Assembly: GCA_002395065.1 (NCBI GenBank)
Contig: DGVS01000007.1
Span: 848-64,847, forward strand
Origin: Bacillales bacterium UBA4278
Lineage (GTDB): Bacteria > Bacillota_I > Bacilli_A > RFN20 > CAG-826
Direction: 5' to 3'
Length of the DNA stretch: 64,000 bases
Below are positions 8,704 through 52,983 of this stretch, piece after piece. The notes under the pieces are model-generated. The model was given only the letters and a program-made list of their open reading frames with translations, was not told the DNA's origin and did not search any database. Position numbers and translations under genes: made by a program. How positions within the stretch are numbered: position 1 is the first letter of the stretch; every line of letters begins with the position of its first letter.

Positions 8704-8744
8704 GTATTTTTACTTAACACCTTATAATTTCCTTTATAATTTTG

Positions 8745-8773: not shown

Positions 8774-8779
8774 CTTACT

Positions 8780-8869
8780 TGCGAGTTTTAAAAACTCGAT
8801 GCAGACGTTCCGCTTTCAAGTCATGATATGAACGCCCTAAGAAATACTAGTTAGAGGAGGCAAAAAGAC
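8780..8869 (+). promoter_or_regulatory. structured 5' leader of rplS (candidate L19 autoregulatory leader)
   Basis: About 90 nt leader containing a hairpin (cgagtt-ttaaaa-aactcg) and a second imperfect stem (gacgttc...gaacgcc) before the SD GAGGAGG. Confidence 0.3.
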
Positions 8870-9217: not shown

Positions 9218-9232
9218 GATACGAAGCTTAAT

Positions 9233-9262
9233 AAAACCCGTCATTTGGCGGGTTTTTATTTT
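9233..9262 (+). terminator. rho-independent terminator after rplS
   Basis: Stem cccgtc pairs with ggcggg across a 4-nt loop, flanked by A and T runs. Confidence 0.7.
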
Positions 9263-9337
9263 GCACTCATACATCATAGTTGGCGTCCGAAACTTTGTTT
9301 TGTTACCAAACTATTTTCGAGAGTGTATAATAGGTGC

Positions 9338-10057
9338 ATGAGCGAAAAACTGTTAAGCGAAAAACAAATTAAGCGTCGTGTTCTTTGGGACAAGATTACT
9401 TTTGTTTTGGTCGCTGTATTCTTAGCGCTTAGTGCAGTTTTCTCCGTGACATTAATTTATCAAAAAACATATTTCGAGATTAAATGGATCAATGGACAAT
9501 CCATGTATCCAACTTTCAATAAAGATGCCGTTGATCGAAACGGAAAGCCAAAAGGTAAGACCGGTATGGGCGCCTTTAATGGTGATAAAAACTTTGATGT
9601 TGTTATTTGGGATGGTCATGAAGCTACAATGAACAAGATGGAACGTTTTGATGTTGTCATTCTTGCCAAAAACGATACCAAAGACCTTATTAAACGAGTT
9701 ATTGCTTTTCCAGGTGAAACGTTCTACTTTGGAAGCGGAGATGATAACGGTAATTTATATTTGCAAAATAACCAAGGATTGTTTGATTATGTCGAACAAC
9801 CTGTTGGAGAATCTTATATTCGTGAAGGTATTTATGATGGTTATCAAACTCCAACAACATTAGGACCAAACGAGTATTTTGTTTGTGGTGATAACCGTGG
9901 TCATTCGGATGATTCGAGATTTTTTGGTCCGATAGATCGAAGCAAAATTTTGGGTATTGTTGTTGCAGTGGTTGGAAAAGCCGATGCAATTCTTAATGAT
10001 GCTGGTTCACTTGTTTACACTAATCTTCGTATTGGCTGGCCGAGGTGGATTAAATGA
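9338..10057 (+). CDS. lepB: signal peptidase I
   Basis: 239 aa from ATG 9338; the ORF-track start at 9245 would run through the rplS terminator. It has one N-terminal TM and the S26 boxes GQSMYPTF, IKRVIAFPGE and GDNRGHSDDSRFFG. Confidence 0.9.
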   Translation: MSEKLLSEKQIKRRVLWDKITFVLVAVFLALSAVFSVTLIYQKTYFEIKWINGQSMYPTFNKDAVDRNGKPKGKTGMGAFNGDKNFDVVIWDGHEATMNKMERFDVVILAKNDTKDLIKRVIAFPGETFYFGSGDDNGNLYLQNNQGLFDYVEQPVGESYIREGIYDGYQTPTTLGPNEYFVCGDNRGHSDDSRFFGPIDRSKILGIVVAVVGKADAILNDAGSLVYTNLRIGWPRWIK

Positions 10058-10902
10058 GCCAACAAATTCATTGGTTCCCTGGGCACATGAAAAAAGCCCA
10101 GATTGAAATTGAAAAGAAAGTTAAACTTGTTGATTGTGTTATCGAACTTTTAGATGCTCGCATTCCATTAGCAAGTCGTAATGAGACTCTTTATAAGATT
10201 ACTCAGAGCAAACTTCGCTTAGTTGTTTTAACAAAGGCTGATTTGGCCGATGAAGAAGAAACCAAAAAATGGGAAATTTACTTTAAAAATGGCGGTTCTG
10301 CGGTGATTTTTGCAGATTTAAACAAATCTAACGATATCCAAAACATTATTAAAAATGTTGAAAAACTAGGTGAAGCAAAACAACAAAAACTAGTTTCTAA
10401 AGGAATGAAACCTCAGCCGATTCGTGCCATGATCATTGGTATTCCGAATGTTGGTAAATCAACTTTAATCAACAAACTATCAAAACGTCACTCAGCTTCT
10501 GTTCAAAATAAACCAGGACACACTAAGTCTCAACAATTAATAAAAGTATCAAACCGCTTTGAACTTCTTGATACTCCGGGAATACTACAGAATTCATATG
10601 AAGACAAAAATAAAGCAATGCTTTTAGCATTAACCGGTTCAATTAAAAGAGAAATTCTTCCAACTGAAGAAGTTGCTGAAGTTGCCTATAAATACATGCG
10701 TGAGTATTATTTTAAAAATTTAAAAGAGCGCTTTGTTTATTTAGAAGAGAACGATTCCTTTGTGGATGCATTTACAAAAATCGCCCGTTCTAGAGGCTAT
10801 TTAGCAAAAGGCGTGGAAGATACAGGCAAGGCCATGGAGGTCTTCTTAAACGAGCTCAAGAATGGCCAAATTGGGCGAGTTAGTTTTGAAAGAGCAAACT
10901 AA
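10054..10902 (+). CDS. rbgA: ribosome biogenesis GTPase A (YlqF/RbgA)
   Basis: 282 aa with WFPGHM and a circularly permuted GTPase motif order (LTKADL, GIPNVGKST, DTPG). Confidence 0.93.
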   Translation: MSQQIHWFPGHMKKAQIEIEKKVKLVDCVIELLDARIPLASRNETLYKITQSKLRLVVLTKADLADEEETKKWEIYFKNGGSAVIFADLNKSNDIQNIIKNVEKLGEAKQQKLVSKGMKPQPIRAMIIGIPNVGKSTLINKLSKRHSASVQNKPGHTKSQQLIKVSNRFELLDTPGILQNSYEDKNKAMLLALTGSIKREILPTEEVAEVAYKYMREYYFKNLKERFVYLEENDSFVDAFTKIARSRGYLAKGVEDTGKAMEVFLNELKNGQIGRVSFERAN

Positions 10903-10904
10903 AA

Positions 10905-11537
10905 ATGGGCTTAACTTACCAAGACCAATTTTATTCAGACAAAGTTCAATTAATTGTTGGAACAGATGAAGCTGGACGAGGACCTTTAGCTGGTCCTGTT
11001 GTTGCTGCTGCGGTTATACTTCCAAAGGATTATAAGAACGATAGAATCAATGATTCTAAACAACTGAGCGAAAAACAAAGAGAAGCATTATTTACCGAGA
11101 TACATGAACACGCTCTAGCGATTGGTGTTGGCGTTGTTAGTGCCGATGAAATTGATCAAATCAATATTTATGAAGCAGCGCGAAAAGCAATGAAACTTGC
11201 GATTGCTGATATGAAACATAGTTTTGATCTAGTTTTAACAGATTGTATGAAACTTCCTGGATACGATGTTCCGGTAATTGATATTGTTAAAGGTGATGCG
11301 AAGGCTTTACCGATTGCTGCAGCATCGATTATTGCAAAAGTTACACGTGATCGAATGATGGATGAACTCGATTCCCAATTCCCAAATTTTCATTTTTCAA
11401 AAAATAAAGGTTACGGAACCAAAGAACATTTGGACGCATTAAAAAAATTCGGCCCAATCGAGCATATTCATAGAAAAACTTTTAAACCTGTAGAAAAAAT
11501 CATCCATGGTGAGATGAATTTATTTGAAGACTTTTAA
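10905..11537 (+). CDS. rnhB: ribonuclease HII
   Basis: 210 aa with GTDEAGRGPLAGPVV, DSK and KGYGT motifs. Confidence 0.95.
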   Translation: MGLTYQDQFYSDKVQLIVGTDEAGRGPLAGPVVAAAVILPKDYKNDRINDSKQLSEKQREALFTEIHEHALAIGVGVVSADEIDQINIYEAARKAMKLAIADMKHSFDLVLTDCMKLPGYDVPVIDIVKGDAKALPIAAASIIAKVTRDRMMDELDSQFPNFHFSKNKGYGTKEHLDALKKFGPIEHIHRKTFKPVEKIIHGEMNLFEDF

Positions 11538-12449: not shown

Positions 12450-14570
12450 ATGCGTACTAAACCAATATATTTTTATGGCGATATGAAGCTAGTTATTGTT
12501 GAATCACCAAACAAATGTCATACCATCCAACGCTACTTAGGCGATGAATATGTCGTCTTAGCTAGCAAGGGTCATATTAGAGATCTTTCCACTAGTGGAA
12601 AGGGTGGTTATGGTGTGGATGTAAATAACGATTTTAAAGCTTCTTATGTAATTACAAAATCAAAGTATCCAACCGTTAATGAACTCAAGAATGCTGCACG
12701 CCAAGCAGACGAAGTTCTGCTTGCAACCGACCCTGACCGAGAAGGGGAAGCGATCGCTTGGCACTTAACTCAAGTTTTAGGACTTGATCCTTTAACAACA
12801 AAACGTTTAGAGTTCCATGAAATTACACGCGCATCTATTAGTGAAGCAATTAAACATCCTCGCACAATTGATATGAATCTTGTTAACTCTCAAGAAACAC
12901 GTCGTATTATCGACCGTATCATGGGATTTAAATTATCTGGATTAGTTCAGAAAAAGATTAAATCTAAATCAGCTGGACGTGTCCAATCTGCGACTTTAAA
13001 AATGATTACAGATCACGATAAAGAAATTGCCGAATTTGTTCCTGAAGAATACTGGCGATTAGTTGTTGAATTTTCTAAAAATAACCGTAAATTCTCGGCT
13101 GAATTTGATAAATACGGTCAAATCAAAGAGATTCCAAATAAGGAAACGAATGACAAAATTCGTTCTGTGTTAGGAAAGGAAATTGTTGTTAAAGAAATTA
13201 AGAAAAGCGTAAAGAGTGTTGAATCCAAACCAGCCTTTACAACCTCATCTTTGCAACAAGAAGCATTTAACGTTTATCACTTCTCAACCAAGAAGACATC
13301 GGAACTCGCTCAAGAATTATATGAAGGTATCAATCTTGGAGATGAACATGTTGGTTTAATCACATATATTCGTACTGACTCAACGTATCTTTCTGATACT
13401 TTCGTTGAAAGAGCAACCAACTACATCACTGAAAAATTTGGTAAAGAATATGTTGGCAAGAGAAAAATCGTTAAACAAGCTCAAGCCCAAAACGCTCATG
13501 AAGCAATTCGTCCAACAAGTAATCATAGAACACCTGAATCAATTAAAGGAGCTTTGTTTGCAAATGCAAAATCAAAGGCAAACGATCTTTATAAACTATA
13601 TAAATTAATTTATGAACGAACGTTGGCTTCTTTAATGGTCGCTAAAAAGGAATCTGTTGAGAAAGTTACATTTGAATCAAACGGTGTTGAATTTAAATCT
13701 GAATACACTTCAACCATCTTTGATGGTTATACAAAGATTTATTCTGCTGAAAAGCAAGAGGAAAAAGCTAACCCAAAATTTGCTGAAGGCGAAAAACTTG
13801 AAATCATAAATATTGTTAATGAACAAAAATTTACTCAACCTCCAGCAAAACTTAATGAAGCAAAAGTTGTTAAGTTAATGGAAGAAAAAGGAATCGGACG
13901 TCCATCAACTTATGCCTCAACAATTGATACTTTATTAAAAAGAAAGTATATTGAGTCAAAACAAGGACAATTCGAGACAACCGAACAAGGCAAGAAAACT
14001 TCAATTGTTCTAAATAAATATTTCCCATCCTTAATCGATGTTAAATATACTGCTAATATGGAATCTTATCTGGATAAAATTCAGGAAGGCGACGTATCAA
14101 GAAGTGAAGTTCTTCATAAATTTTATGATGAGTTTATCAAAATCGCTGAAGATGCTAGCAAAAAAATGTATAAAGATGAAGATGTACCAATTGGCCGTAA
14201 ATGTCCAAAATGTGGTGCTGAACTCGTAATGAAAAAAGGTAAGTTCGGAGACTTCATCGGATGCTCGAATTTCCCAGAATGTGACTATTGCGAAAACGAA
14301 ACCCAACTCGAATATACTGGTGAGAATTGTCCAGTATGCGGTAAACCTTTGGTTTATAGACGTAGTAAAAAAGGCAAAAAATTTATTGCTTGCTCCAACT
14401 ATCCACATTGCGATTACATCAAAAGTGAAAAGAAACCACTCGAGGTTGTTGGTAAGTGTCCAGAATGTGGCGGAGATCTTGTAAAAAGAAAAGCTCGTGG
14501 TCGCGAAATCATTGGCTGTTCAAACTATCCAAGATGTCATCACATTGAATATCCGAAAAAGTCGAGTTAA
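12450..14570 (+). CDS. topA: DNA topoisomerase I
   Basis: 706 aa with a TOPRIM domain (LVIVESPNK, ATDPDREGEAIAWH), the active-site region ITYIRTDS, and three C-terminal CPxCG...C zinc ribbons. SD AAGGTG lies 8 nt before ATG 12450. Confidence 0.95.
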   Translation: MRTKPIYFYGDMKLVIVESPNKCHTIQRYLGDEYVVLASKGHIRDLSTSGKGGYGVDVNNDFKASYVITKSKYPTVNELKNAARQADEVLLATDPDREGEAIAWHLTQVLGLDPLTTKRLEFHEITRASISEAIKHPRTIDMNLVNSQETRRIIDRIMGFKLSGLVQKKIKSKSAGRVQSATLKMITDHDKEIAEFVPEEYWRLVVEFSKNNRKFSAEFDKYGQIKEIPNKETNDKIRSVLGKEIVVKEIKKSVKSVESKPAFTTSSLQQEAFNVYHFSTKKTSELAQELYEGINLGDEHVGLITYIRTDSTYLSDTFVERATNYITEKFGKEYVGKRKIVKQAQAQNAHEAIRPTSNHRTPESIKGALFANAKSKANDLYKLYKLIYERTLASLMVAKKESVEKVTFESNGVEFKSEYTSTIFDGYTKIYSAEKQEEKANPKFAEGEKLEIINIVNEQKFTQPPAKLNEAKVVKLMEEKGIGRPSTYASTIDTLLKRKYIESKQGQFETTEQGKKTSIVLNKYFPSLIDVKYTANMESYLDKIQEGDVSRSEVLHKFYDEFIKIAEDASKKMYKDEDVPIGRKCPKCGAELVMKKGKFGDFIGCSNFPECDYCENETQLEYTGENCPVCGKPLVYRRSKKGKKFIACSNYPHCDYIKSEKKPLEVVGKCPECGGDLVKRKARGREIIGCSNYPRCHHIEYPKKSS

Positions 14571-14586
14571 TTCTCGGCTTTTTTGT
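14556..14586 (+). terminator. rho-independent terminator spanning the topA stop
   Basis: Stem aaaaagtcgag pairs with ctcggcttttt around the loop ttaatt. Confidence 0.65.
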
Positions 14587-14598
14587 TATAATACTCGC

Positions 14599-15885
14599 AT
14601 GAAAAAGGTGAATGTTATTGGCGGTGGATTAGCAGGGTCAGAAGCATGTTATTTTTTGCTAAAACAAGGATATGAAGTACACCTTTATGAGAAAAGACCA
14701 AACGAAATGACGCCAGCCCATCATACCGGTTTATTTGGCGAACTTGTTTGTTCAAATTCTCTTAAGTCAAAAAGACTTGATAATGCATGTGGATTGCTCA
14801 AAGAAGAGATGCGCCATCTCGGCTCAATTATGATGGAAGCAGCTCTTAAAACCGAGGTTCCTAGTGGAAATGCTTTAAGTGTAGATCGTGAGAGATTTGC
14901 AGAGAAAATCACCGCAATTCTCGGTTCTTTTTCTAATTTTCATGTACATCATGAAGATGTTAAAGAACCAAAAGAAGGTGTGACAATTATTGCAACTGGT
15001 CCTTTAACTAGTGAAGGTTTAGCGTCATATTTAATGAAGCAAGTTGGACAGGAGTCTTTGTTCTTCTTTGATGCCTCGGCACCAATTGTAAAACGCGAAT
15101 CTATTAACATGGAAATTGCTTACAAAAAAGCACGCTATGACCAAGGCGATGACTCATACATTAACTGCCCGTTTTCCGAAGAACAATACAACAAATTTTA
15201 TGATGAATTAACTCATGCTGAATTAGCAATGGTCCATGATTTTGATAAAAACTATTTTGAAGGTTGTATGCCGATTGAAGTTATGGCTAAAAGAGGCCGT
15301 GACACACTTCGATACGGGCCTATGAAACCAAAAGGTTTACAAATGATGGATAGACCAAAAGCCTATGCAGTGGTTCAATTAAGACAAGATAATCAGTTTG
15401 GTGACCTTTACAATATTGTGGGATTTCAGACGAATTTAACTTACCCAGAACAAAAACGTGTCTTTAGAATGATACCTGGTTTAGAAAAAGCAGAGTTCGT
15501 ACGTTATGGTTTAATGCACAAAAACATGTATTTGTGTTCTCCGTTAATTCTCAATGACAAGCTTGAAATGAAAACAAATCCGAATGTGTTTTTGGCTGGT
15601 CAATTAATTGGTGTTGAAGGTTATGTTGAATCGGCTGCAATGGGTATTCTTGCCGCAATTTACGCTTATGAAAAAATGGAAAATAAACAGTTTCCAGAAC
15701 TTCCAATTAATACAATGATTGGTTCGTTAAAGAATTATGTAATTAATGCAAATCCTAAAGATTTTTCACCAATGAACGCAAATTTCGGTATTTTTTACGG
15801 AGCATCAAATCACTCTCGTGAAGAGCTTGTTAATCAGTCATTAAAACTCATTGATGAGTGGAAAGAAAAACTAAATGTTAAGTGA
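14599..15885 (+). CDS. trmFO: methylenetetrahydrofolate--tRNA-(uracil54-C5)-methyltransferase TrmFO (Gid)
   Basis: 428 aa from ATG 14599 beginning [16 protein letters not shown]. The ORF-track start at 14497 lies inside topA and its terminator. TGtTATAAT sits 6 nt upstream. Confidence 0.93.
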
Positions 15886-24479: not shown

Positions 24480-27400
24480 ATGAATGATAAGATGCGAAGA
24501 TTCTTAAATCACATCCACCTCGAAAACATTGAACGTTTCGATCTTGATTTTGATTTGGTCACTCGTAATCCGTTTAAAAAAGAACAAGTCGACATGCTTG
24601 TCGTTAAAGACACGCCATGGAACTACGATTTATTAGAAGAGTTCCAACACGGACTTGAATCAATTACTTATCCTTATGATTTGAAATTCTCTTATAAGAA
24701 GAAACCGACTGTTAAGGATGCAATTAAACTTTTCCCAGATTGGCATCGCGCTCACAATCGTTTTGTTTCAGATCAAGTTTTAGAAGAAAAAGAAGATGCA
24801 ATTGTCTTTGTTTTTAAAACTGAAGAAGAAAAGCGAAATAACCAGCAAATCTTGGATGATTTCAAAGAATTCCTCAGATTTTTATCATACCGATTTGATG
24901 TTGTTTCGATAGTTCGTTTAGAAGAAAAAACAACTCCTAATGTTTCTCAAGAAGTCCTCGATGAAATGGAAGAAAAAGCCAACCAAGTCTATGAGGAAGA
25001 AATTGCCGAAAGCGGTGATGATGAAAACGAATCCTACTATAAAAACGCCGAAATGGTTGAAGAAGAGGAAGAAGAAAGTGCTTTAAAGGCTTACGAAGAA
25101 GAATATATCGAAACCTTAAAGAACAACATTTCTCAACTGAAAGACCTTGGTAAAAATATAAAGAAAAATAAATCAAAGAGTGATTATGATCCGCAAACAT
25201 GGAGAGATGCCATCCCATTTAAAAAGTACACTGACTTCTCTTTGATTAAAGAGGATAGCGGAAACGTCGACATTACTGGCGAAGTTTTCGGTATCGATAA
25301 AATTCGTACAAATTATTTTGGCAAAGCAGTTTGTCCATGTGGCATAGGAAACGGAAAACAAGCGATTAACATCCGTATTGTTGAAAACAAACATACGACC
25401 GTTGAAGAAATCGAAAAATTGAAAAACGGAATGTATATTCACATTAAAGGTTATGCTGAGGCCGATAAACGTAGCGGACAAGTTTCTGTTACAGCACGCG
25501 GTTTTGAAATCGTTCCACCTCCAGCTATGAGAAGTGACGATGAAGAACAAAAGCGCGTTGAACTTCATCTTCATACCAGAATGTCGGTTATGGATGGTGT
25601 TGCCTCCATTAGTGAATATTGTAAGCTTGCTAAAGCAATGGGTCACAAAGCAATTGCGGTGACCGACCATGGTGTTGTGCAATCGTTCCCTGAAGCACAA
25701 GATGCTCAAAAAGATAGTGGAGTAAAGATTCTTTATGGATCTGAACTCTACATGGTTAACGATGAACTACCATTTGCCCTTAATCCTCAACCAATTCCAT
25801 TACGAAACACGGCTTATGTTGTGTTCGACTTAGAAACAACCGGACTTTCGAAAGAATACGACCGCATTACTGAGTTTGGTGCGATTCGATTTGAACATGG
25901 AAATATTGTGAAAACAGAGGACTTCTTTATTAATCCTTTGATTCCAATCCCACAAAAAGTTCAAGATAAAACTCATATTACACAAGCAATGGTGAACTCG
26001 GCAAAAACTTTTGAAGAGTGTGCCGATCGTATCATTGACTTCTTTAAAGATGCGATTATCGTTTCTCATAACATCACATTCGACCTTGGATTCATCAATG
26101 CTTCCTTAATTAGAATGGGTCGTGAACCAATTAAACCACCGGCGATTGATACTCTTTCGCTATCTCACTATATGTTCCCAGAAGCTGGGTCTCATCGCTT
26201 GGGTTCTTTATCAAGAAACCTTGGAATTCAATCATATAATGATGAAGAAGCTCACCGTGCTGATTATGACGCTAAAGTTTTAAATGAAGTTTGGTTAGCT
26301 ATGCTAAATCGACTCACCGAGCACAATATGGATCTGAAGCATTCTGATTTGGCTGAGATTAAAACAACTGAAGCGATGCTGAAACATATTCGCCCAAGTC
26401 ACATTAACTGTCTTGTCAAAGATGAAGATGGATTCAGAGCACTTTATGAACTTGTTTCTTTGTCACATATTAAATATCTTGCAGATGTTCCAAAGACACC
26501 AAAAAGAGAAATTGCACGATTACGTGAGCATCTATTATTGGGTTCAGCGTGTTGTAACGGTGAAGTCTTTGATGGTGCTCGAACAATGACCAAATCTGAC
26601 CTGAAAGAGGTCATGAAATTCTATGATTATATTGAAGTTCAACCTCCAGAGAACTATCGTCATTTAGTTAATCTTGGAAGTGTTGATAGTTTTGATGAAG
26701 TTAAGAAATACATCAAAGACATTGTTGAGTGTGCTGACGAGATTGGAAAACCAGTTGTGGCCACAGGTGATGTTCACTATCTCAATCCAGAAGACAAAAT
26801 TACTCGAGATGTGTACATCTCTGCCAAAGCGGTTGGAGGCAAACTCCACCCACTTCATATGCGAGACACCTCATTAGAAGCACCTGATCAACATTATCGA
26901 AGCACAAAGGAAATGCTTGATGCTTTCGCTTTCTTAGGAAAGGAAAAAGCTTTCGAGATTGTTGTTACAAACACAAACAAAATTGCTGATTCGATTGGTG
27001 AATTTAAACCAATTAAAAAAGATTTACACCCACCAGTTATTGAAGAGGCACCTAAGATTTTGCGTGATACTTGCTATGCAAAAGCTCACGAAATCTATGG
27101 TGATCCACTCCCAGAAGAGATTCAAAACCGCTTGGAAAAAGAACTTTCTGGTATTATCGATAATGGTTATTCCGTGACTTACTATATTGCTCACGAAATT
27201 GTTCGACGAGCAAATGAAGCTGGTTATGTTGTTGGTTCTCGTGGATCCGTTGGATCTTCTTTTGCTGCACATATGTTTGGTATTACCGAAGTTAACCCAC
27301 TTAGACCACATTATCGTTGTCCAAAATGTAAACATTTAGAGTGGATTGATGATCCAGAAATTCATTCTGGCTATGACCTCCCAGATAAAAAGTGTCCAGT

Positions 27401-28946
27401 TTGTGGTGAACCTCTTGTTGGAGACGGACAAAATATTCCATTTGAAACATTCCTTGGATTTAATGCGGATAAGATTCCTGATATTGATTTAAACTTCCCA
27501 AGTGACTACCAAAAGAAAGCATTCGATAGTACGAAAGATATTTTTGGTGAAAACAACGTTTTCAGAGCAGGTACAATTGAAACAGTTGCTGAAAAAACTG
27601 CTTTCGGTTATGTCCGTGGTTATTTTGAAGAACGTGGCATTGATCCAAGTACAATTCCTTCTTCTTATATTGCTTATTTAGCCAGCCATGTTGCTGATAC
27701 AAAACGTACAACTGGACAACATCCTGGTGGAATTATGGTTCTGCCAAAAACCTGTAATATTTACGATTTCACACCAATTCAATATCCTGCCGACGATAAA
27801 GAATCTGATTGGTTAACAACCCATCTTGATTATCGTGCTCTTCACGACGCTTTGCTTAAACTTGACCTTTTGGGTCACGTTGACCCACTTGCGTTAAGAT
27901 TGATGACCGAAATGACCGGTCTAAAGATGAAAGATATTCCTCTTAATGATAAAAAAGTTATTTCGTTATTTACATCGGATAAAGCTCTTGAAAGAAGTGG
28001 CAACTACCTCAAAGTTCGTAACGGTGCATCAGGTTTGCCAGAATTCGGAACAGATGTGTGTCGTGATATTCTTTTAGGTGCTCAACCAAAATCGTTTGCT
28101 GATCTTGTTGCTGTTGCTGGTCTTGCCCACGGTACTGACGTCTGGCAGGGAAACGCTTCAGAATTAATTAAGAATGGCAAAACCATTCGTGAAGTTATCG
28201 GATGTCGTGATGACATCATGACTTACTTAATTTCCAAAGGTGTTCAACCAAAAACAGCCTTTAATACAATGGAATCCGTTCGTAAAGGTCGTAAGATTCC
28301 AAAAGAAGCCGAAGAAGCACTTAGAGCTTGTAATGTTCCAGAGTGGTACATTGAATCATGTAACAAGATCAAATACATGTTCCCGAAAGCCCACGCTGTT
28401 GCTTATGTGACAATGGCGGTTCGTGTTGGATACTTTAAACTCTATTATCCACTTGAATTCTACGCAGTTTGGTTCTCTGCTCGTTGTAAACAATACGACA
28501 TCGTTCCAATGCTTGGTGGAAAAGAAGCCATTATTCAACGATATGATGAACTAAGAGGTCGTAAGAATAAGCACGAAAAACTTTCTCCAAAGGAGACAGA
28601 TATTTTAAAGATGTTGACAGTGGCGATTGAAATGACTGAACGTGGATACAAGTTTAAAAAAGTTGATTTATATAAATCGAAAGCGACAGAATTTGTTGTT
28701 AATCATGATGACAAAGCTCTTATTTGTCCGTTCATTGTTATTGATGGATTAGGTGATTCTGCTGCTGAAAGTGTTGTTGAAGCTCGCGAGAAAGGGCCAT
28801 TCTCTTCAAAGGAAGACCTTCTCAAACGAACCAAACTCTCTTCAACAAACGTCGAAGATTTAAGTGCCATTGGAACACTTGATGGCATGGGTGAAAGTGA
28901 CCAGATGTCACTCTTTGAGTTTGGTTTAGATGATATCGGGGCGTAG
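24480..28946 (+). CDS. polC: DNA polymerase III PolC-type
   Basis: 1488 aa with a PHP domain (HLHTRMSVMDG), a DEDDh exonuclease (VVFDLETTGL, SHNITFD, HRADYDA), a Zn module (CPKCKH..CPVCG) and the polymerase core. The TAG stop at 28944-28946 lies inside tRNA-Pro. Confidence 0.97.
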   Translation: MNDKMRRFLNHIHLENIERFDLDFDLVTRNPFKKEQVDMLVVKDTPWNYDLLEEFQHGLESITYPYDLKFSYKKKPTVKDAIKLFPDWHRAHNRFVSDQVLEEKEDAIVFVFKTEEEKRNNQQILDDFKEFLRFLSYRFDVVSIVRLEEKTTPNVSQEVLDEMEEKANQVYEEEIAESGDDENESYYKNAEMVEEEEEESALKAYEEEYIETLKNNISQLKDLGKNIKKNKSKSDYDPQTWRDAIPFKKYTDFSLIKEDSGNVDITGEVFGIDKIRTNYFGKAVCPCGIGNGKQAINIRIVENKHTTVEEIEKLKNGMYIHIKGYAEADKRSGQVSVTARGFEIVPPPAMRSDDEEQKRVELHLHTRMSVMDGVASISEYCKLAKAMGHKAIAVTDHGVVQSFPEAQDAQKDSGVKILYGSELYMVNDELPFALNPQPIPLRNTAYVVFDLETTGLSKEYDRITEFGAIRFEHGNIVKTEDFFINPLIPIPQKVQDKTHITQAMVNSAKTFEECADRIIDFFKDAIIVSHNITFDLGFINASLIRMGREPIKPPAIDTLSLSHYMFPEAGSHRLGSLSRNLGIQSYNDEEAHRADYDAKVLNEVWLAMLNRLTEHNMDLKHSDLAEIKTTEAMLKHIRPSHINCLVKDEDGFRALYELVSLSHIKYLADVPKTPKREIARLREHLLLGSACCNGEVFDGARTMTKSDLKEVMKFYDYIEVQPPENYRHLVNLGSVDSFDEVKKYIKDIVECADEIGKPVVATGDVHYLNPEDKITRDVYISAKAVGGKLHPLHMRDTSLEAPDQHYRSTKEMLDAFAFLGKEKAFEIVVTNTNKIADSIGEFKPIKKDLHPPVIEEAPKILRDTCYAKAHEIYGDPLPEEIQNRLEKELSGIIDNGYSVTYYIAHEIVRRANEAGYVVGSRGSVGSSFAAHMFGITEVNPLRPHYRCPKCKHLEWIDDPEIHSGYDLPDKKCPVCGEPLVGDGQNIPFETFLGFNADKIPDIDLNFPSDYQKKAFDSTKDIFGENNVFRAGTIETVAEKTAFGYVRGYFEERGIDPSTIPSSYIAYLASHVADTKRTTGQHPGGIMVLPKTCNIYDFTPIQYPADDKESDWLTTHLDYRALHDALLKLDLLGHVDPLALRLMTEMTGLKMKDIPLNDKKVISLFTSDKALERSGNYLKVRNGASGLPEFGTDVCRDILLGAQPKSFADLVAVAGLAHGTDVWQGNASELIKNGKTIREVIGCRDDIMTYLISKGVQPKTAFNTMESVRKGRKIPKEAEEALRACNVPEWYIESCNKIKYMFPKAHAVAYVTMAVRVGYFKLYYPLEFYAVWFSARCKQYDIVPMLGGKEAIIQRYDELRGRKNKHEKLSPKETDILKMLTVAIEMTERGYKFKKVDLYKSKATEFVVNHDDKALICPFIVIDGLGDSAAESVVEAREKGPFSSKEDLLKRTKLSSTNVEDLSAIGTLDGMGESDQMSLFEFGLDDIGA

Positions 28947-29318: not shown

Positions 29319-29990
29319 ATGGATGAGATTGCAAAACGAAAGAAACTTATTGAAAAACTCTGGATTGTTGTTGGAAACACAGGAATTGGAGCGGTTGTTT
29401 TAGGCTTAATTGCTTTATTTATTGGACTAAGAAATACAAACTCAAGTACTTTATTGTATGTTTTCTTTTGGATCTTTATCGCATTAGGAATTATTGCTTT
29501 AATTGGCTGTGTAGTTGCATTAATTGTTTGTCTCAAACTTGGTAGTAAAAAAGCCCTCAGAAAGTTAATTGAACCAGAAATTGCTGGTAAAAATAAGAAA
29601 AGAGAAGTCTTTGTAGTAGCTGGTGCAATCATTAAAGATGGTTATGTTTTTGCTGCCCAAAGAGGTAATAAAGGCGAAACAAAATTTAAATGGGAATTCC
29701 CAGGCGGAAAGATTGAGCCAGGTGAAACTCCTGAACAAGCTTTAGCCCGTGAATTACTTGAAGAACTAAAGATCAAAGTGAAGGTTTATGAGCGAATCAC
29801 AAATATTGTTGATGAGTACCCAACCCAAATCCTTCATATTGATACTTATCGTTGCGAGCTTCTTGAAGGCACGCCAACATTAACTGAACATATTAATATG
29901 GCGTGGTCAAACAAAGAAGAACTCGATAAACTCGAATTTTCCAAAGCCGATGCCCCAACATTAGACAAAATTAAGAAACTTTATTTATAA
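29319..29990 (+). CDS. membrane-anchored NUDIX hydrolase (MutT/8-oxo-dGTP diphosphatase-like)
   Basis: 223 aa. The N-terminal ~95 aa carry two predicted TM helices. The C-terminal domain has the Nudix box GGKIEPGETPEQALARELLEELKI and a MutT-like fold pattern. Confidence 0.8.
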   Translation: MDEIAKRKKLIEKLWIVVGNTGIGAVVLGLIALFIGLRNTNSSTLLYVFFWIFIALGIIALIGCVVALIVCLKLGSKKALRKLIEPEIAGKNKKREVFVVAGAIIKDGYVFAAQRGNKGETKFKWEFPGGKIEPGETPEQALARELLEELKIKVKVYERITNIVDEYPTQILHIDTYRCELLEGTPTLTEHINMAWSNKEELDKLEFSKADAPTLDKIKKLYL

Positions 29991-30020: not shown

Positions 30021-30103
30021 GCAGTGGTGGCGGAATTGGTATACGCGTGGGTCTCAGAAGCCCATCCTGATTCAGGTTGCGAGTTCAAGTCTCGCTCACT
30101 GCA
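30021..30103 (+). tRNA. tRNA-Leu (anticodon CAG)
   Basis: 83-nt class II cloverleaf with a long variable arm and anticodon loop ctCAGaa. The 3' flank is ACCC, so CCA is not fully encoded. Confidence 0.8.
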
Positions 30104-30116
30104 CCCACGATAAAAC

Positions 30117-30198
30117 GCCCACGTGGTGAAATTGGTAGACGCAAAGGACTCAAAATCCTTCGGAGAAATCCATGTCGGTTCGAGTCCGACCGTGGGCA
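30117..30198 (+). tRNA. tRNA-Leu (anticodon CAA)
   Basis: 82-nt class II cloverleaf. The acceptor gcccacg pairs with cgtgggc and the anticodon loop is ctCAAaa. The 3' flank is ACCC. Confidence 0.8.
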
Positions 30199-30207
30199 CC
30201 CAAAACG

Positions 30208-30233
30208 GAGATTGTATTCAATCTCTTTTTTGT
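30208..30233 (+). terminator. rho-independent terminator
   Basis: Stem gagattg pairs with caatctc around the loop tatt, followed by TTTTTT. Confidence 0.7.
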
Positions 30234-30366
30234 TTGATAACACAAATTTTTTAAATTTTTTCACCAGCAATTCTCCAATAAATTGACACAGTACAATTAT
30301 TTTTCTTTACTAATTCATAATATATGAATAAAATTATCGTGCTTTTTTTAAAAGTGAGGTTAGAAC

Positions 30367-31548
30367 ATGGATTTATTTTCAAAGTATAAAAACCCATTGC
30401 TTGAAATGGCTCGTAAGGAAGGCATTTACCCATACTTCCACGAATTACAGTCCAGACAAGCCCCAGAAGTAGTTATGGAAGGCCATCGCATTATTATGCT
30501 TGGTTCGAATAACTATCTTGGTTTAACCGAAAATCAAAACGTTATTGATGCCGGAATCAAAGCATTAGAAAAGTATGGTTCTGGTTGTTCCGGTTCCCGC
30601 TTCCTTAATGGAACTTTAGATTTACATAAAGAACTTGAGAAAGAAATTGCTGAATTCTTACACAAAGAAGATGCTGTTACTTTTTCAACTGGATTCCAAT
30701 CCAACTTAGGTATCATCTCTGCCTTAGCTGGTTTTGGTGATTACATTTTAAATGACCGTGAAAATCACGCTAGTATCTATGATGCTTGTAAGTTAAGTTA
30801 TGCAAAAGTTTTACGTTATCGTCATAGCGATATGGAAGATCTTGAAAGACAACTTCAAAGTATTCCTCAAACTGCAGGCATTTTAATCGTTACCGATGGC
30901 GTCTTCTCTATGAGAGGTGATATTTGTAAGCTTCCAGAAATCTGTGCATTAGCAAAGAAATATGGCGCTCGTGTCATGGTTGATGACGCTCATAGCTTAG
31001 GCGTGTTAGGCGAAGGTGGCCGTGGTACTGCATCATACTTTGGTTTAGAAGACCAAGTTGATGTCATTATGAACACATTTTCTAAATCACTTGCCTCGAT
31101 CGGCGGATGTATGGCTGCTTCTAAAGAAGTCTGTGACTATGTTCGTCACTGTTCTCGTCCATTCATTTTTAGTGCTTCCTTAACGCCAGCTTCGGCTGCT
31201 TGTGCTTTACAAGCACTCCGTGAATTAAAATCTCATCCAGAAATGGTTAGCAGATTAAATGAACTTGGAAATTATTGTAGAAAAGCATTCCAAGATCGTG
31301 GACTCCATATTGTGGAGGCACAAACTCCAATCGTTCCAATTTACACCTACACACCAAAGAGAACATTCATTATTGCTCAAAAACTCTTTGCAAAAGGTGT
31401 GTATGTTAACCCAGTTGTTTCACCAGCTGCACCAGAAGGTGAATGTTTATTGCGTGTTACCTTAATGGCTTCGCACAATGAAAAACTCATTGATGAAGCA
31501 GCGGATATTATTGCTGAAGTTGTAAATAATGAAAAAACAGAAGACTAA
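30367..31548 (+). CDS. PLP-dependent alpha-oxoamine synthase, serine palmitoyltransferase-like
   Basis: 393 aa with GSNNYLGL, GSGCSGSRFLNGT and DDAHS motifs. The PLP-lysine context is NTFSKSLASIGG, with the Lys codon at 31084-31086. SD is GAGGT. Confidence 0.75.
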   Translation: MDLFSKYKNPLLEMARKEGIYPYFHELQSRQAPEVVMEGHRIIMLGSNNYLGLTENQNVIDAGIKALEKYGSGCSGSRFLNGTLDLHKELEKEIAEFLHKEDAVTFSTGFQSNLGIISALAGFGDYILNDRENHASIYDACKLSYAKVLRYRHSDMEDLERQLQSIPQTAGILIVTDGVFSMRGDICKLPEICALAKKYGARVMVDDAHSLGVLGEGGRGTASYFGLEDQVDVIMNTFSKSLASIGGCMAASKEVCDYVRHCSRPFIFSASLTPASAACALQALRELKSHPEMVSRLNELGNYCRKAFQDRGLHIVEAQTPIVPIYTYTPKRTFIIAQKLFAKGVYVNPVVSPAAPEGECLLRVTLMASHNEKLIDEAADIIAEVVNNEKTED

Positions 31549-32323
31549 AGTCGTTGTAATTACTGGTGGATCAAGCGGTATTGGCTTAGCCACAGTAAAA
31601 CACTTTGCATCAAAAGGACATGTTGTCTATGAACTCTCTCGTTCAGGCAAATCTTTTGATAGTGTTAAACATATCTTCTGTGATGTAACAAAAGAAGAAA
31701 CCGTTCAAGAAGCCATCAGCCAAGTTATTGCTGAACAAGGACACATAGATGTCTTAATTAACAACGCTGGTTTTGGCATCTCTGGACCAATTGAATTCAC
31801 CAAATTAGAAGACGCAAAAAAACAATTTGATGTGAATTTCTTTGGTGCGCTAACTGTTGTTAAAGCAGTAGTGCCGTATATGAGAAAAGAACAGAAAGGT
31901 CGCATTGTTTTTGTTTCTTCTGTTGCTGCTGTCTTCTCGATTCCATTCCAAAGCTTTTATAGTGCTGCAAAAGCAGCTATGAATTCTCTTACATTGTCGC
32001 TTGCTAATGAACTTCGTCCATTTCATATTTCAGTCTGTGCTTTGATGCCAGGAGATGTTCAAACAGGTTTTACTGCCGCTAGAGAAAAGAGCGTGGAAGG
32101 TAGTGAAGTTTATACTCGTTTAGAGAAGTCAGTGAAGACAATGGAACATGATGAAACACATGGAATGGCTCCTGAGAAAATGGCAAAGAAATTATATAAA
32201 ATATCCAGCAAATCTCGGGTAAAACCACTTTATGTTGGTGGAGGCAAATATTCTTTCTTCTGTTTCTTAGCTAAAATTTTCCCCACCCGTTTCTTTAACT
32301 GGGTTGTTGGAAAACTTTATTAA
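31529..32323 (+). CDS. classical short-chain dehydrogenase/reductase (candidate 3-keto-amino-alcohol reductase)
   Basis: 264 aa with ITGGSSGIG cofactor and YSAAKAA catalytic motifs. Its start overlaps the upstream gene by 20 nt. Confidence 0.8.
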   Translation: MKKQKTKVVVITGGSSGIGLATVKHFASKGHVVYELSRSGKSFDSVKHIFCDVTKEETVQEAISQVIAEQGHIDVLINNAGFGISGPIEFTKLEDAKKQFDVNFFGALTVVKAVVPYMRKEQKGRIVFVSSVAAVFSIPFQSFYSAAKAAMNSLTLSLANELRPFHISVCALMPGDVQTGFTAAREKSVEGSEVYTRLEKSVKTMEHDETHGMAPEKMAKKLYKISSKSRVKPLYVGGGKYSFFCFLAKIFPTRFFNWVVGKLY

Positions 32324-32398
32324 TTGATTTGCCTCGAAAAATTTCAAAACTAAGTATTGAAATATATAAGTGAATCATTTAATATAATCACGCCCTCT

Positions 32399-32474
32399 GC
32401 CGTCATAGCTCAGCAGGTAGAGCAACTGTCTCGTAATCAGTAGGTCGATGGTTCAATTCCGTCTGACGGCACCA
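32399..32474 (+). tRNA. tRNA-Thr (anticodon CGU)
   Basis: 76-nt cloverleaf with anticodon loop ctCGTaa. The 31:39 position is a U-U mismatch. CCA is encoded. Confidence 0.8.
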
Positions 32475-32482: not shown

Positions 32483-32558
32483 GGGTGTTTAGCTCAGCTG
32501 GGAGAGCATCTGTTTGACGTACAGAAGGTCAGGGGTTCGAGCCCCTTAGCACCCACCA
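32483..32558 (+). tRNA. tRNA-Val (anticodon GAC)
   Basis: 76-nt cloverleaf with anticodon loop ttGACgt. CCA is encoded. Confidence 0.85.
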
Positions 32559-32569: not shown

Positions 32570-32596
32570 CTCCAGTGATTGCTGGAGTTTTTATTT
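32570..32596 (+). terminator. rho-independent terminator
   Basis: Stem ctccag pairs with ctggag, followed by TTTTTATTTT. Confidence 0.7.
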
Positions 32597-32652
32597 TGCT
32601 TTTATTGTGTGCGTGTTATAATGTAAGCGCATTAAAAGGAAGGTTTTTTCTT

Positions 32653-46842: not shown

Positions 46843-47715
46843 ATGAATGCACTCTATCTTTATTCAAATAAAACCGGATTACAACGTAAATTTAAAAAGC
46901 ATAACAAGATTATTGAGAGATTACGCAAAACTTTTGATTGCGTTGAACCTCATTTAACTTCTTCCATTGAAGATTTAATGTCGTCTTGTCGCGATGCAAA
47001 GAAAAACGGTTACGATGTGATTATTGTCTGCGGTGGTGATGGAACTTTAAAAGACGCTGTTAATGCCATCGCTCCTTTAAACAAAGAAGAAAGACCAATT
47101 ATTGGCTACATTCCAACGGGAACCGTAAATGATTCGGGTAAGTCATTTGGTGTTAAAGGAAGCATTCGCCAAGCAATCAAAGTAATTGAAAATCGTGAGG
47201 TTTTTGAAATTGATATTTGCAGAGCAAATAACGAATACTGGACATTTGTTGCTGCGATTGGTCAATACACCGATATTTCCTATATTGTTCCTCGTAAACA
47301 AAAGAAGGTTCTTGGACGTTTCGCTTATTACAATCAAGCTGTGAAAGAAGTCTTCACAAAGAAAAGAGTTCAAGTTCATTTGAAATGTGATCAAGGAGAA
47401 TTTGATTTTGAAACACCATTTTTGATGTGCCTTAACGGAGTCAATGTAGGTGGTTTTAGAGTCAATCCGAAAAACTCCTTGTTTGATGGTAAAATGGATA
47501 TCTATATTACTCCGACAACCATTTTTAATGGTTTAACCAACTATATCTTCCATCGAAAGAAGATTACGATAATTAGCACCAAACACGCTGAAATTTCCAC
47601 CTCAGAAAAAGGTTCGTGGTGTTTAGATGGTGAGGAAGGAATGAAGGGCGATCTTGTTTTAGACGTCTTACCACGTCATATCCAAGTGTTTGGATTCTTC
47701 AAAAACAATCGATAA
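46843..47715 (+). CDS. DAGK_cat family lipid kinase (YegS/BmrU/DagK-like)
   Basis: 290 aa with VIIVCGGDGTLKDAVNAI and IPTGTVND motifs. Confidence 0.85.
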   Translation: MNALYLYSNKTGLQRKFKKHNKIIERLRKTFDCVEPHLTSSIEDLMSSCRDAKKNGYDVIIVCGGDGTLKDAVNAIAPLNKEERPIIGYIPTGTVNDSGKSFGVKGSIRQAIKVIENREVFEIDICRANNEYWTFVAAIGQYTDISYIVPRKQKKVLGRFAYYNQAVKEVFTKKRVQVHLKCDQGEFDFETPFLMCLNGVNVGGFRVNPKNSLFDGKMDIYITPTTIFNGLTNYIFHRKKITIISTKHAEISTSEKGSWCLDGEEGMKGDLVLDVLPRHIQVFGFFKNNR

Positions 47716-49155: not shown

Positions 49156-52100
49156 ATGAATAAGTTTCGCTTTAGACTGGTTTATTCATTAGGCGTACTA
49201 ACTTGTGCGCTTCCGTTAGCGCTATCTTCTTCCGTCCTCTCCTATGGAAATGCGGAAGGTCTTTTTGATTATTCTGATGGAAGTCACATCGCTTATTTAA
49301 ACGCCGGAGATTTCTTAGCTAAAAGCGGAATATCACTTGATCAAAGCGAAGTTGATTATTTAAATCAATCTTCATCAAATAAACTTGTCTACACGGAAGC
49401 TTTTAAAGATGATGATGTTAAAACATCTTTTGTTGGTGAGACGGAATATGTTTTCGCTCATGAAAAAAGTTATGTTGTTGCAAACGGAAGAGAATGGAAA
49501 TGGACGCCAAGTTATGTTGTGGCAAACTCCAATATTCCGTTTGTCACCTACGGTGATCTTTATGTTGCGTCTTTCCCATCATCTTTAGGATTAGAGAATG
49601 TTGATGTCTATTATGAGTTAAACCTCGATATTGCCCCACAAGTTTACAATTCATTTATTAATGAATCATATAACCAAGCAGTAGATTTAGACGCGACTTA
49701 CGAAGAATATCTTGATGAACTAGCTTACTATGATCGACGTCCAAAAAGTGAACTGGAATATGATCAACAAGTCAGCATTTATAACCAATACCTCGAAGAC
49801 TACCAGTCTTATTTAAATAAGAGGGAAAACTACGAAGACTATCTCCATAAAATGGAGGAATATAATGAGAATGTTCAGAAATATAATGACTATTTAGCTG
49901 CGAAAGAGCAATATGCAAAAGACTTCCAAACTTATAAGGAAGACCAAGAATACATCGCCTACTATTTAGCAAACATTGAACAAAACACCAAAGAGTACCA
50001 AGAATTTGGAATTAAATATGAAAACTCTCGTTACCAACTCAGTGCAATGAACGTTGCCTACATCCACGATACTGCTCGTCAGTCATCAATGGCAGACTAT
50101 ATTCTTTCGAACACAGTTGCTTCTGTTCTTGCCCGAAAAGACGAACTTTCTGCTCTTGGAGTACCAAATGACTTAATTGATGCTGCCGATGGTGCAACAG
50201 TTAAGCTGAGAACTTGTTTCCGTGAATACAAAGCATTAACCAATGATGAAGCACGTTATTCGTATTATTACATCAACTACAACTACATTAAATCAAACGC
50301 GAATATTTTACTTCGTTCTTTAGAACGTCTAGGAAGATATCCTTCAGTTCGTAATCTTGCTCAAGATCGAGGAAAACTTCCACAATACAACACACTCATT
50401 TTCCAACTAATTTATTTCTGCAACGCCGTTAACGACAACATTGTTTATAACTATGAAGCCTATAATCAAAGTACTGGGAAAGGTGACATGTCTCGACCTG
50501 GAGCAGCGATTCTTGATGAAAACTTCCAAATTGATGGAAGTACTTATAAAACCTGGCTTCAAGGTTACGAATATATTGATACAAGTAAAACCGCAACCCC
50601 AGCCACAGGTATTTTGCCAACTGAACAAGTTGTTCCTTTAGAACCTCCAAAATACTTAGATATGCCAACTGAACCATCATTAGTCCAAAAACCAGTTGCT
50701 CCAGCGGTGGTGAATGAACCAATTGCACCAGAAGAAGTTTTAGAACCAATTGAATATGATCCAGATGCTGTTGCTCCTGATTTACCATCCATTTTGGAAG
50801 TGGCGGCCAATCGCAATCTCTTAAATGCTTATCGAGATGGCAAAGTTGTCGAGAAAGATCTTTTAACTGAATCGGTTGAAATAATCATTTATGGTTATCG
50901 AAATGTTGAACTAAACAAAGATAAAGTGGCGATTTTTTATAACTATGATGACACTCCACTTCATTTTGTTTTCTTTGAAGGCACTGGTGTAATCTATGAT
51001 TACGACCTTCCGGTAAAACCAGGCGATGGTGTTTATAAGAACTTTTTGTTTGATTACTGGGCTGACGCGAATGGAAACCTAATCACTTTAAGTGAACTTT
51101 CTGTATCAACTGATATCTTCCCAGTTTTTGAAAACGGCCAACAAGAAAGGTGGGAAATCACCTGGGTTTATTCAGAAACTAACATTGAAACAAATGAGGT
51201 TCTTGGTGGAAATGTTCCAACTTCACCTAAGGTGCCGACCAAAGAAGCCACAGAAGAACACTATTATGTCTTTAAAGAATGGTCCCCGGAAGTAAAACAA
51301 GCCACGGAAAACGCCACTTATACTGCGATATTTGATGAACTGAATATCTATGATATTACATATGAAATTGATGGAAACCTTATTGTTTCAAAAGAACGTC
51401 AAAATTATTTACCAAACGCTCCAAAAACATATGAAGATAGCGAAGGAACATATTATGTTATTACTGGTTGGACCAAAGAAGGCTCAACTGAACCAGGCTT
51501 AGAAAAAATTGTCGGTGATACTTTGTATCATGCTATTTTTGAAAAATACTACACAATTACATGGAACATCCTTGGAGAAGTTTCAAAAGAAAGATATCCT
51601 GAAGGAGCTGATGTTTCCTATAAGGGAATCATGCCGGAAGAAATTCGTTTGGATCAATACTATAGTGCTTTTGAATTTGACCAAGAACTTGGAAAAGCCG
51701 ATTCTAATCGTACAATTACGGCAACCTATATTGACCATAACTATCCTCAAGTCTTACTTGATGTTGATAATTATATTATCAATCTTACCGGTGACTATTT
51801 GCCAAAAGAATTACCACTCAATGAAGGATACCTTCCTACATCATACAATTCCAGTTCTTATCATTATGAGATTACTGGGTGGACTTTAAACGGTTCAACA
51901 TATGTTGCTCAATTTGAAAAAACACCATTCATTAGTGGTGGCATCACATATAACTTTGTTGGAGAGACCTTAAAAGTCGATGCTTCTTTGAAACAGCTAA
52001 ATGAAGTGGATATCTCTTATCTTCTCTCACTTGTGAGAGATGGAAAACTTACTGAGATGCCTCTAAACATTATTTTTAAAGACGGTGAAGTATTTTTTAC

Positions 52101-52941: not shown

Positions 52942-52983
52942 TTTTTTGTTTATTAAATTATATCTTTGTATATAATTATAACT

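Follow-up and report, generated by a model that had tools for sequence, protein, structure and literature searches.

A putative serine palmitoyltransferase and reductase operon for sphingoid base synthesis in uncultured Bacillota

Background

Could a member of the Bacillota make sphingoid long-chain bases de novo with a pair of overlapping genes? The question is raised by a locus of Bacillales bacterium UBA4278, in a stretch of 64,000 nucleotides (nt) of contig DGVS01000007.1 (assembly GCA_002395065.1) that was analysed as a whole and is hereafter called the window. Here an spt-like gene (30367..31548, plus strand, ATG start), coding for a pyridoxal phosphate (PLP)-dependent α-oxoamine synthase of 393 amino acids (aa), has 20 nt in common with a kdsR-like gene on the same strand (31529..32323, ATG start), which codes for a classical short-chain dehydrogenase/reductase (SDR) of 264 aa. 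A preliminary description of the locus had proposed the pair as a cassette for sphingoid- or capnine-type lipids; the two open reading frames and their overlap are borne out at these coordinates, and the motifs that it quoted lie at the claimed kind of position in both proteins. The synthase was assessed by hidden Markov models (HMMs), PDB comparisons, a tree and a residue map, and the reductase by HMMs, Pfam and its coupling to the synthase. Taken together, these point to a two-gene operon predicted to direct de novo synthesis of a sphinganine-type long-chain base, a reading to which we assign a probability of roughly 0.7.

Sphingolipids of gut bacteria pass into the tissues of the host and modulate its immunity as well as its lipid metabolism. 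Their production in the gut has been attributed to Bacteroidota (PMC10865984), and Bifidobacterium has been named as a non-producer (PMC7910519). As predictions of Spt-like genes now span about 40 phyla (PMC11334938), finding a predicted Spt beyond the Bacteroidota and Proteobacteria is unsurprising in itself.

Identity of the synthase

The spt product is a full-length fold-type I PLP-dependent α-oxoamine synthase: Pfam PF00155 matches residues 42-382 at 210.7 bits, and the models for α-oxoamine synthases all align end to end. Its motifs are GSNNYLGL (46-53), GSGCSGSRFLNGT (71-83), DDAHS (206-210) and NTFSKSLASIGG (236-247), the last of which contains K240. Among the NCBIfam models the CFB-type Spt (NF047600) ranks first with 524.9 bits, and is followed by the beta-proteobacterial Spt (401.9 bits), Kbl (388.7), BioF (381.9), ALAS (262.8) and CqsA (201.7). 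The PDB ranking is likewise headed by a serine palmitoyltransferase (SPT), namely that of Sphingobacterium multivorum (SmSPT; 3a2b, 413.7 bits), with the Sphingomonas SPTs at 281-287 bits and Kbl at 258 bits or less.

SmSPT and the window protein align without gaps over 378 aa with an identity of 49.5%, compared with 40.5% for SpSPT, 35.9% for E. coli Kbl and 31.8% for E. coli BioF. Structures of SmSPT with its ligands define the residues that bind PLP and L-serine (PMC10196870), and in the window protein these are identical throughout: N52 corresponds to N48, Y54 to Y50, G80/S81 to G76/S77, H138 to H134, S185 to S181, D210 to D206, A212 to A208, H213 to H209, T241 to T237, S243 to S239, K244 to K240, and the carboxylate-binding Arg to R363 (D207 is also listed among the active-site residues, beside D206). 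All the mapped positions are invariant in an alignment of 25 members of the clade to which the protein belongs. The same structural study names G-T-F-S-K-S as the PLP motif characteristic of SPTs; the window protein has N-T-F-S-K-S at 236-241, with Asn236 in place of the Gly, so that the earlier impression about TFSKS finds support in print. Furthermore, the window protein and SmSPT both carry an NPVVSPA segment where the Sphingomonas SPT has Arg378.

A neighbour-joining tree of 101 sequences was anchored with SmSPT, SpSPT, E. coli Kbl and E. coli BioF (the two SPT anchors being taken from alignments made in this analysis) and was built without the canonical Bacteroides Spt. It recovers the clade of the window protein with a bootstrap of 100, joins this clade to SmSPT with 92, and separates the SPTs from Kbl and BioF with 97. 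The clade thus forms a separate subfamily, sister to SmSPT. The HMM and PDB rankings, the gapless alignment with its active-site residues and the position in the tree concur on a PLP enzyme of the SPT type, as had been suggested, and place it outside the Kbl and BioF groups that had been named as the alternatives.

The reductase and its coupling to the synthase

The product of the second gene shows both hallmarks of the classical SDRs, a TGxxxGxG cofactor motif (TGGSSGIG, 12-19) and an N-S-Y-K tetrad formed by N103 (in DVNFFG), S130/S131, and Y144 and K148 of the YSAAK motif (144-148). Pfam adh_short matches at 168.7 bits. The best NCBIfam model is KdsR, the bacterial 3-ketodihydrosphingosine reductase (NF049977), which aligns end to end (2-267 of 267) with 244.7 bits, in line with the part of 3-keto reductase that the preliminary description had assigned to this partner; the SDRs of the relatives score 213-242 bits against the same model. 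There is no close solved structure, the best PDB match being 97 bits. A Ser-Arg pair after β-strand 2 (S37-R38) is conserved in the clade, suggesting that the enzyme is probably NADPH-dependent. Beyond the catalytic residues the SDR clade also has an invariant signature of its own (AG.GISG..E.T, PGD....FT..R.K, ME.DE..G).

The stronger evidence comes from gene context. As the SDR start lies within the 3' end of spt and lacks a strong Shine-Dalgarno sequence of its own, we infer that its translation is coupled to that of the synthase. A scan of species-representative genomes provided 80 loci among the matches listed (Spt 64-71% identical; the window's own species is not among them), and in about 50 of these, from three phyla, an ortholog of the SDR (46-59% identical) stands directly 3' of spt, usually overlapping it or a few bases away. 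The SDR tree matches most of the local Spt subclades, which implies that the two genes evolve as one unit, and both are under strong purifying selection (dN/dS 0.04-0.11 over both genes in three comparisons with dS of at least 1; 0.06-0.10 for the SDR). This conserved coupling is strong, though indirect, evidence for the predicted role of the SDR as the reductase acting with Spt. When the neighbours in the 80 loci were clustered, no other family was consistently linked as a third gene; those that recur are lineage-specific housekeeping genes (an ABC ATPase, LD-carboxypeptidase, 5'-nucleotidase, Mdh and Rrf2-IscS).

Proposed pathway and acyl supply

By analogy with characterised SPTs (PMC10196870) and KDSRs (PMC9278070), the synthase would act as a homodimeric bacterial-type serine palmitoyltransferase that forms an external aldimine of L-serine on K240; its decarboxylative Claisen condensation with a long-chain acyl thioester would lead to 3-ketosphinganine. 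The coupled 264-aa SDR would then reduce the 3-keto group, probably with NADPH, to yield sphinganine (dihydrosphingosine). The analysis establishes that the genes are intact, their family placement, the conservation of active site and coupling, purifying selection and horizontal mobility, whereas the substrates, product, cofactor and acyl donor are inferred. That an SDR of the KDSR type is coupled directly to Spt further points to a step order of the Bacteroides type, in which reduction would precede N-acylation.

The acyl donor would probably be an acyl-acyl carrier protein (acyl-ACP) made from scavenged fatty acids via FakA and PlsX, with acyl-CoA as the alternative; this is suggested by the presence of genes for FakA, PlsX and an ACP-like protein and by the absence of genes of type II fatty acid synthesis at their usual locus. 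The related SulA prefers acyl-ACP (PMC9304779). The relevant genes form a contiguous block outside the cassette (873-4201), with fakA (873-2546, plus strand, Pfam Dak2/FakA-like), plsX (2556-3521, plus strand, Pfam FA_synthesis) and, directly after plsX, rnc (3521-4201). In model Bacillota fapR, fabD, fabG and acpP stand between plsX and rnc. None of the four is present there in the gene annotation of this contig, as had been pointed out earlier, and this gap fits an organism that scavenges fatty acids. FakA and PlsX take exogenous fatty acids by way of acyl-phosphate to acyl-ACP and may supply Spt.

The ACP-like protein is a stand-alone protein of 74 aa (PF00550, with an LGLDSLD motif) encoded 1.8 kb past the right edge of the window (14386-14610 of locus L097 on the same contig, approximately window position 65811-66035). 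It lies outside any fab operon and is divergent, scoring 42.5 against 71 bits and remaining below all ACP equivalog cut-offs. It is a candidate acyl carrier for scavenged fatty acids.

Distribution and horizontal exchange

The carriers among the matches listed are mostly uncultured Clostridia, including Oscillospiraceae, Christensenellales, Lachnospiraceae, Ruminococcaceae and metagenome-assembled genomes (MAGs) labelled 'Clostridiales', with rumen, rabbit, chicken and human gut as their sources; those from the human gut include UMGS and Hadza isolates. About 15 of the 80 listed loci belong to Paludibacteraceae or other Bacteroidales, and one to Sphaerochaetaceae. The sample and isolate labels suggest an origin in rumen and gut metagenomes for the carrier sequences in general. 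In the tree the Bacilli form a subclade (bootstrap 93) with a Paludibacteraceae subclade as its sister (97 for the two together); both are nested in the Clostridia radiation. This suggests a Bacillota-centred family that may also have been passed to rumen Bacteroidales, a direction of transfer that is read from a tree without the canonical Bacteroides sequences.

One Clostridia subclade (L008, L026, L057, L060 and L083; spt at about 10001-11190) departs from the usual arrangement. Its spt has no adjacent SDR, is followed in a conserved arrangement by genes for an Rrf2 regulator and IscS (a class V aminotransferase), and is preceded by three conserved genes of unknown function. In these organisms the reductase may be encoded elsewhere, or spt may be used differently.

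Among the Bacilli, comparison of the cassette with host markers indicates an old horizontal exchange of the putative operon between divergent organisms of the same rumen samples. In the comparison of the window (24480-28946 against 30367-32323) with L091 the identities are 45% for CdsA, 62% for Dxr, 51% for RseP and 60% for PolC; for the cassette they are 92% for Spt, 86% for the SDR and 80% for the cassette DNA. In L092 the corresponding cassette values are 82%, 75% and 74%, and PolC is about 77% identical (its assignment to the L092 lineage being putative). The DNA homology of the cassette begins 20-50 nt 5' of the spt ATG (about 30316-30345) and ends at the SDR stop codon. GC content, GC content at third codon positions (GC3) and codon usage of the cassette are indistinguishable from those of the host genes, with no compositional anomaly; as dS is also saturated, the transfers are old rather than recent.

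In all the Bacilli contexts that were examined the cassette sits within a tRNA array, and there are three different arrays. In the window and in L092 (9686-12192) it stands between tRNA-Leu/Leu and tRNA-Thr/Val; in L091 it follows tRNA-Ala(ggc) (9761-9836), likewise downstream of polC; and in L089 (9689-12367) it stands between tRNA-Ala(tgc)/Met and tRNA-Cys/Arg/Pro. No integrase or repeat was seen at the Bacilli cassette loci examined. Co-transcription with the tRNAs and a recombination hot spot are both possibilities for this siting. The L089 cassette adjoins a gene for a DUF1295 (PF06966) membrane protein (8651-9610), with a choline-kinase/APH-family gene 4.5 kb upstream, and these neighbours could be lipid-modifying.

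Weighing the evidence

Several observations count against the proposed function. Neither protein reaches the equivalog cut-off of its best model: the synthase scores 524.9 bits where NF047600 requires 640, and the SDR 244.7 bits where KdsR requires 400, with a generic SDR subfamily 41 bits behind. Five other clade members, three of them from Paludibacteraceae/Bacteroidales MAGs, score 499-543 bits against NF047600, and hence all lie below 640. Both proteins are therefore better regarded as belonging to a separate subfamily than as orthologs of the characterised Bacteroides enzymes; of the original identification the family type stands, and orthology to characterised enzymes is not established. 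The KdsR model is not specific and attracts generic SDRs of this subfamily: it is also the top model, at 125 bits, for a second, unrelated SDR of 274 aa on the same contig (L097 17437-19481 with the adjoining ATP-grasp protein, minus strand, outside the window), and several dissimilar SDRs reduce 3-keto long-chain bases (Wu et al., PMC11211663), so that the SDR sequence alone is weak evidence. About 30 of the 80 listed relatives lack an adjacent SDR, and the clade members all come from uncultured organisms. Furthermore, searches among the window proteins and within 4.5 kb of spt in the 80 relatives did not find a bCerS, CerR or head-group enzyme, and the unannotated proteins of the window did not include any other sphingolipid enzyme. 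Finally, the active site differs from that of SmSPT at a single position, Ser75 replacing Ala79, which in SmSPT touches the substrate side chain through water and has been equated with Cys133 of human SPTLC1 (PMC10196870); the position is variable among SPTs, being Asn in the aligned Sphingomonas enzyme.

Some of these points would be accommodated if the pair performed condensation and keto-reduction, but the product were no precursor of membrane ceramides. It could then be a free long-chain amino alcohol or a variant base derived from alanine, glycine or an unusual acyl group, which might have a signalling or antimicrobial role, or be N-acylated by a kind of enzyme new to Gram-positives. The lack of linked bCerS, CerR and head-group genes, the sub-threshold scores, the substitution at the substrate side-chain contact and the form of a 2-kb mobile cassette, typical of an accessory trait, are all consistent with such a product, as is the low-efficiency use of alanine, glycine and homoserine by SmSPT itself (PMC10196870). 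However, the serine-binding set is otherwise identical to that of SmSPT and invariant in the clade. In Bacteroides, too, spt, kdsR and the ceramide synthase gene are unlinked (BT_0870 and BT_0972, PMC9278070; CerS/CerR loci, PMC10865984), so that missing linkage says little, and we regard a non-ceramide product as unlikely, if still worth keeping in mind. A different substrate altogether would be used if the pair were a capnine or sulfonolipid cassette, with a cysteate fatty acyltransferase (CFAT; SulA/CapB) and a 3-ketocapnine reductase (CapC/KCR). The chemistry and gene types would be the same, CFATs are related to the Bacteroidota Spt, and KCRs, as ordinary SDRs, can hardly be separated from KDSRs by sequence (PMC11211663). 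What discriminates here is the residue 30 positions after the PLP lysine, for which Lys (K281 of SulA) has been proposed as diagnostic of CFATs and where Spt has Ala (Radka et al., PMC9304779): the window protein has Ala270, and all 25 aligned clade members have Ala. The CFAT structures also score well below SmSPT (236.4 bits for 7u7h and 231.9 bits for 28eh versus 413.7), and no cysteate synthase was found in the window. Ala270 and the PDB scores rule out a CFAT as far as sequence can, and the capnine option that had been offered earlier is accordingly very improbable.

Matches to the Kbl and BioF models reach 382-389 bits, and the fold is common to all these enzymes, as might be expected if the synthase were a housekeeping enzyme, either Kbl acting with threonine dehydrogenase or BioF in biotin synthesis. 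These scores are nevertheless below the respective cut-offs (460 and 426.45 bits) and 136-143 bits behind the Spt model, the 97% split in the tree and the lower identities to the E. coli enzymes (36% and 32%, against 49.5% for SmSPT) speak for an SPT, and no tdh or bio genes lie nearby. The partner, moreover, is a classical SDR with KdsR as its best model and not Tdh, the enzyme whose gene pairs with kbl in E. coli; a housekeeping role therefore has very little to recommend it. A CqsA-type autoinducer synthase was also rejected, its model matching at 202 bits against a cut-off of 428. It remains to ask whether the locus is real, as a Bacteroidota fragment could have been mis-joined into a Bacillota contig during assembly or binning; the nearest non-Bacilli relatives are indeed Paludibacteraceae and the sequences are all metagenomic. 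But an identical Spt protein with the same gene order (polC-tRNAs-NUDIX-tRNAs-spt-SDR-tRNAs-DUF2188) recurs on contigs of 56-175 kb in at least 6 independent assemblies of different projects, the NCBI MAG GCA_002392585.1 among them, which rules out a chimera. This recurrence, the pairing in about 50 of the 80 listed relatives and the low dN/dS also make the arrangement more than an accident. The host-like composition of the cassette tells against an artefact as well, as do relatives whose Spt is 82-92% identical and lies together with polC on long Bacilli contigs; we give an artefact next to no credence.

Comparison with known systems

The predicted sphingoid-base operon is best compared with SmSPT (PDB 3A2B and the 8GUH series) and the NF047600 family, which includes enzymes of the Bacteroides BT_0870 type. 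The shared features are a soluble α-oxoamine-synthase architecture of about 395 aa, the T-F-S-K-S motif, the His/Asp/His/Ser/Arg/Asn catalytic and serine-binding residues, NPVVSPA, and Ala at the position of the CFAT lysine. Unlike these enzymes, the window protein falls short of the family cut-off, belongs to a fully supported clade of its own, carries Ser75 and Asn236, has mostly Bacillota as hosts and is encoded in an operon with a reductase. Similarly, the SDR resembles BT_0972 of Bacteroides thetaiotaomicron and the KdsR family in its length of about 265 aa, cofactor motif and catalytic tetrad, but given its score it can represent no more than a related subfamily; in B. thetaiotaomicron BT_0972 stands apart from spt (BT_0870), whereas the two genes of the window overlap.

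CerR belongs to a different reductase family than the KDSR-type SDRs. The Caulobacter pathway (Spt, bCerS, CerR, and a dedicated ACP with its ACP synthetase) also begins with Spt, and in both cases the acyl group may plausibly be supplied on an ACP; in Caulobacter, however, acylation by bCerS is followed by reduction by CerR (PMC10865984, PMC11087976), whereas in the window a KDSR-type SDR is coupled to Spt. The SulA/CapB and CapC/KCR pair of gut bacteria likewise combines an α-oxoamine synthase with an SDR to form a long-chain amino alcohol, but differs in the residue equivalent to Ala270 and in its structural scores, and the published KCR genes lie apart from cfat (PMC11211663).

Neither the chemistry nor the two enzyme families are new; the novelty lies in the Spt/KDSR subfamily, its operon form and its hosts. 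In the searchable literature we found no description of this Spt subfamily, of its mobile two-gene operon with a reductase, or of its wide occurrence in Clostridia and Bacilli of gut and rumen, and in the open literature none of a Bacillota spt-kdsR. The earlier account is incomplete in this respect: the cassette is not peculiar to the lineage but is widespread in uncultured Clostridia and in Paludibacteraceae. Reports of sphingolipids in Acholeplasma axanthum go back to lipid chemistry of the 1970s, an account that we did not find confirmed in the searchable literature.

Genomic setting of the cassette

The window is an unremarkable piece of the chromosome of a Bacillota with low GC content (37%). 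To the left of the cassette lie fakA-plsX-rnc-ftsY-ffh, ribosomal and translation genes, uppS-cdsA-dxr-rseP-polC, tRNAs, a NUDIX gene and further tRNAs. To its right are tRNAs and genes for a DUF2188 membrane protein, a C11 peptidase, pepF, pgpA, a diadenylate cyclase and gltX, then a DAGK_cat lipid kinase and two very large unannotated proteins. Close relatives of both Spt (93% identical) and PolC bear no other name than 'Bacilli bacterium', and the description of the host as Mollicutes-like is plausible.

The cassette is flanked on the left by plus-strand genes for tRNA-Leu(cag) (30021-30105) and tRNA-Leu(caa) (30117-30200), both found by ARAGORN and matched by the Rfam tRNA model at 53-55 bits. 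These are followed on the same strand by a terminator-like hairpin, GGAGATTGTATTCAATCTCT (30207-30226), with a T-run (30207..30236 in all), found by consensus scan and sequence reading; as a pattern match, it would close the upstream tRNA unit and insulate the cassette. The AT-rich leader (30306..30359, plus strand) contains a ribosome-binding site, GTGAGG, read directly in the sequence at 30354-30359, 7 nt 5' of the spt ATG, and a weak σ70-like match from the consensus scan, TTTACT-17-TAAAAT (30306-30334). As shuffled sequences give at least as many promoter matches as this region does, a promoter here is a guess. The Rfam search found no riboswitch or other leader RNA element in the cassette leader. 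On the right, tRNA-Thr(cgt) (32399-32474) and tRNA-Val(gac) (32483-32558) follow on the plus strand (ARAGORN, Rfam), with a promoter-like site before them (32357-32385, plus strand, consensus scan). The consensus scan found no terminator between the SDR stop and these tRNAs, and the first terminator-like hairpin 3' of the cassette, CTCCAGTGATTGCTGGAG (32570-32587) with a T-run (32570..32597, plus strand; consensus scan), lies beyond them. The picture of a self-contained pair between two tRNA-Leu genes with a terminator and a tRNA-Thr/Val pair is thus confirmed by ARAGORN, Rfam and the consensus scan.

Other features of the segment deserve mention. The DAGK_cat kinase (46843-47715) belongs to the YegS/Rv2252/BmrU family and matches TIGR00147 at 145 bits, above the cut-off. 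The DAGK_cat catalytic domain is common to sphingosine and ceramide kinases; the protein itself is probably an ordinary DgkB-like diacylglycerol kinase. The two very large proteins are encoded by adjacent frames of 1261 and 1428 aa (49156-57252) without a recorded Pfam family; before them lies a frame of 427 aa without a Pfam or NCBIfam match, and after them come two CNNM/CorC transporters. At its 3' end polC shares 10 nt, stop codon included (28937-28946), with the start of tRNA-Pro(cgg); a gap of 1 nt lies between the two genes in L091. The MutT-like NUDIX protein (29319-29990, 223 aa) has a hydrophobic N-terminal extension of about 95 aa, which is missing from its L091 homolog of 138 aa.

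Conclusions

Current annotation gives the genes of the cassette no more specific names than 'aminotransferase class I/II' and 'SDR oxidoreductase', and the curated Spt and KdsR models miss the whole subfamily. As a compact unit of about 2 kb, the pair is directly testable by heterologous expression, and it would provide a genetic handle on any sphingolipids in wall-less or Gram-positive bacteria. More tentatively, and with more doubt than confidence, one may picture many uncultured gut and rumen Bacillota, both Clostridia and Bacilli with small genomes, making sphingoid bases with a mobile spt-kdsR cassette that is fed with scavenged fatty acids by FakA, PlsX and ACP, the lipids being finished by an N-acyltransferase or head-group machinery that differs from bCerS/CerR and from the Bacteroides enzymes. 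A conserved, selected spt-reductase operon in hundreds of genomes of uncultured Clostridia and Bacilli, human-gut MAGs among them, would mean that the potential producers include a second large group. If Bacillota do synthesize such bases de novo, Bacteroidota would not be the only source of sphingolipids in the gut, and Gram-positives devoid of an outer membrane would use sphingolipids in their single membrane.

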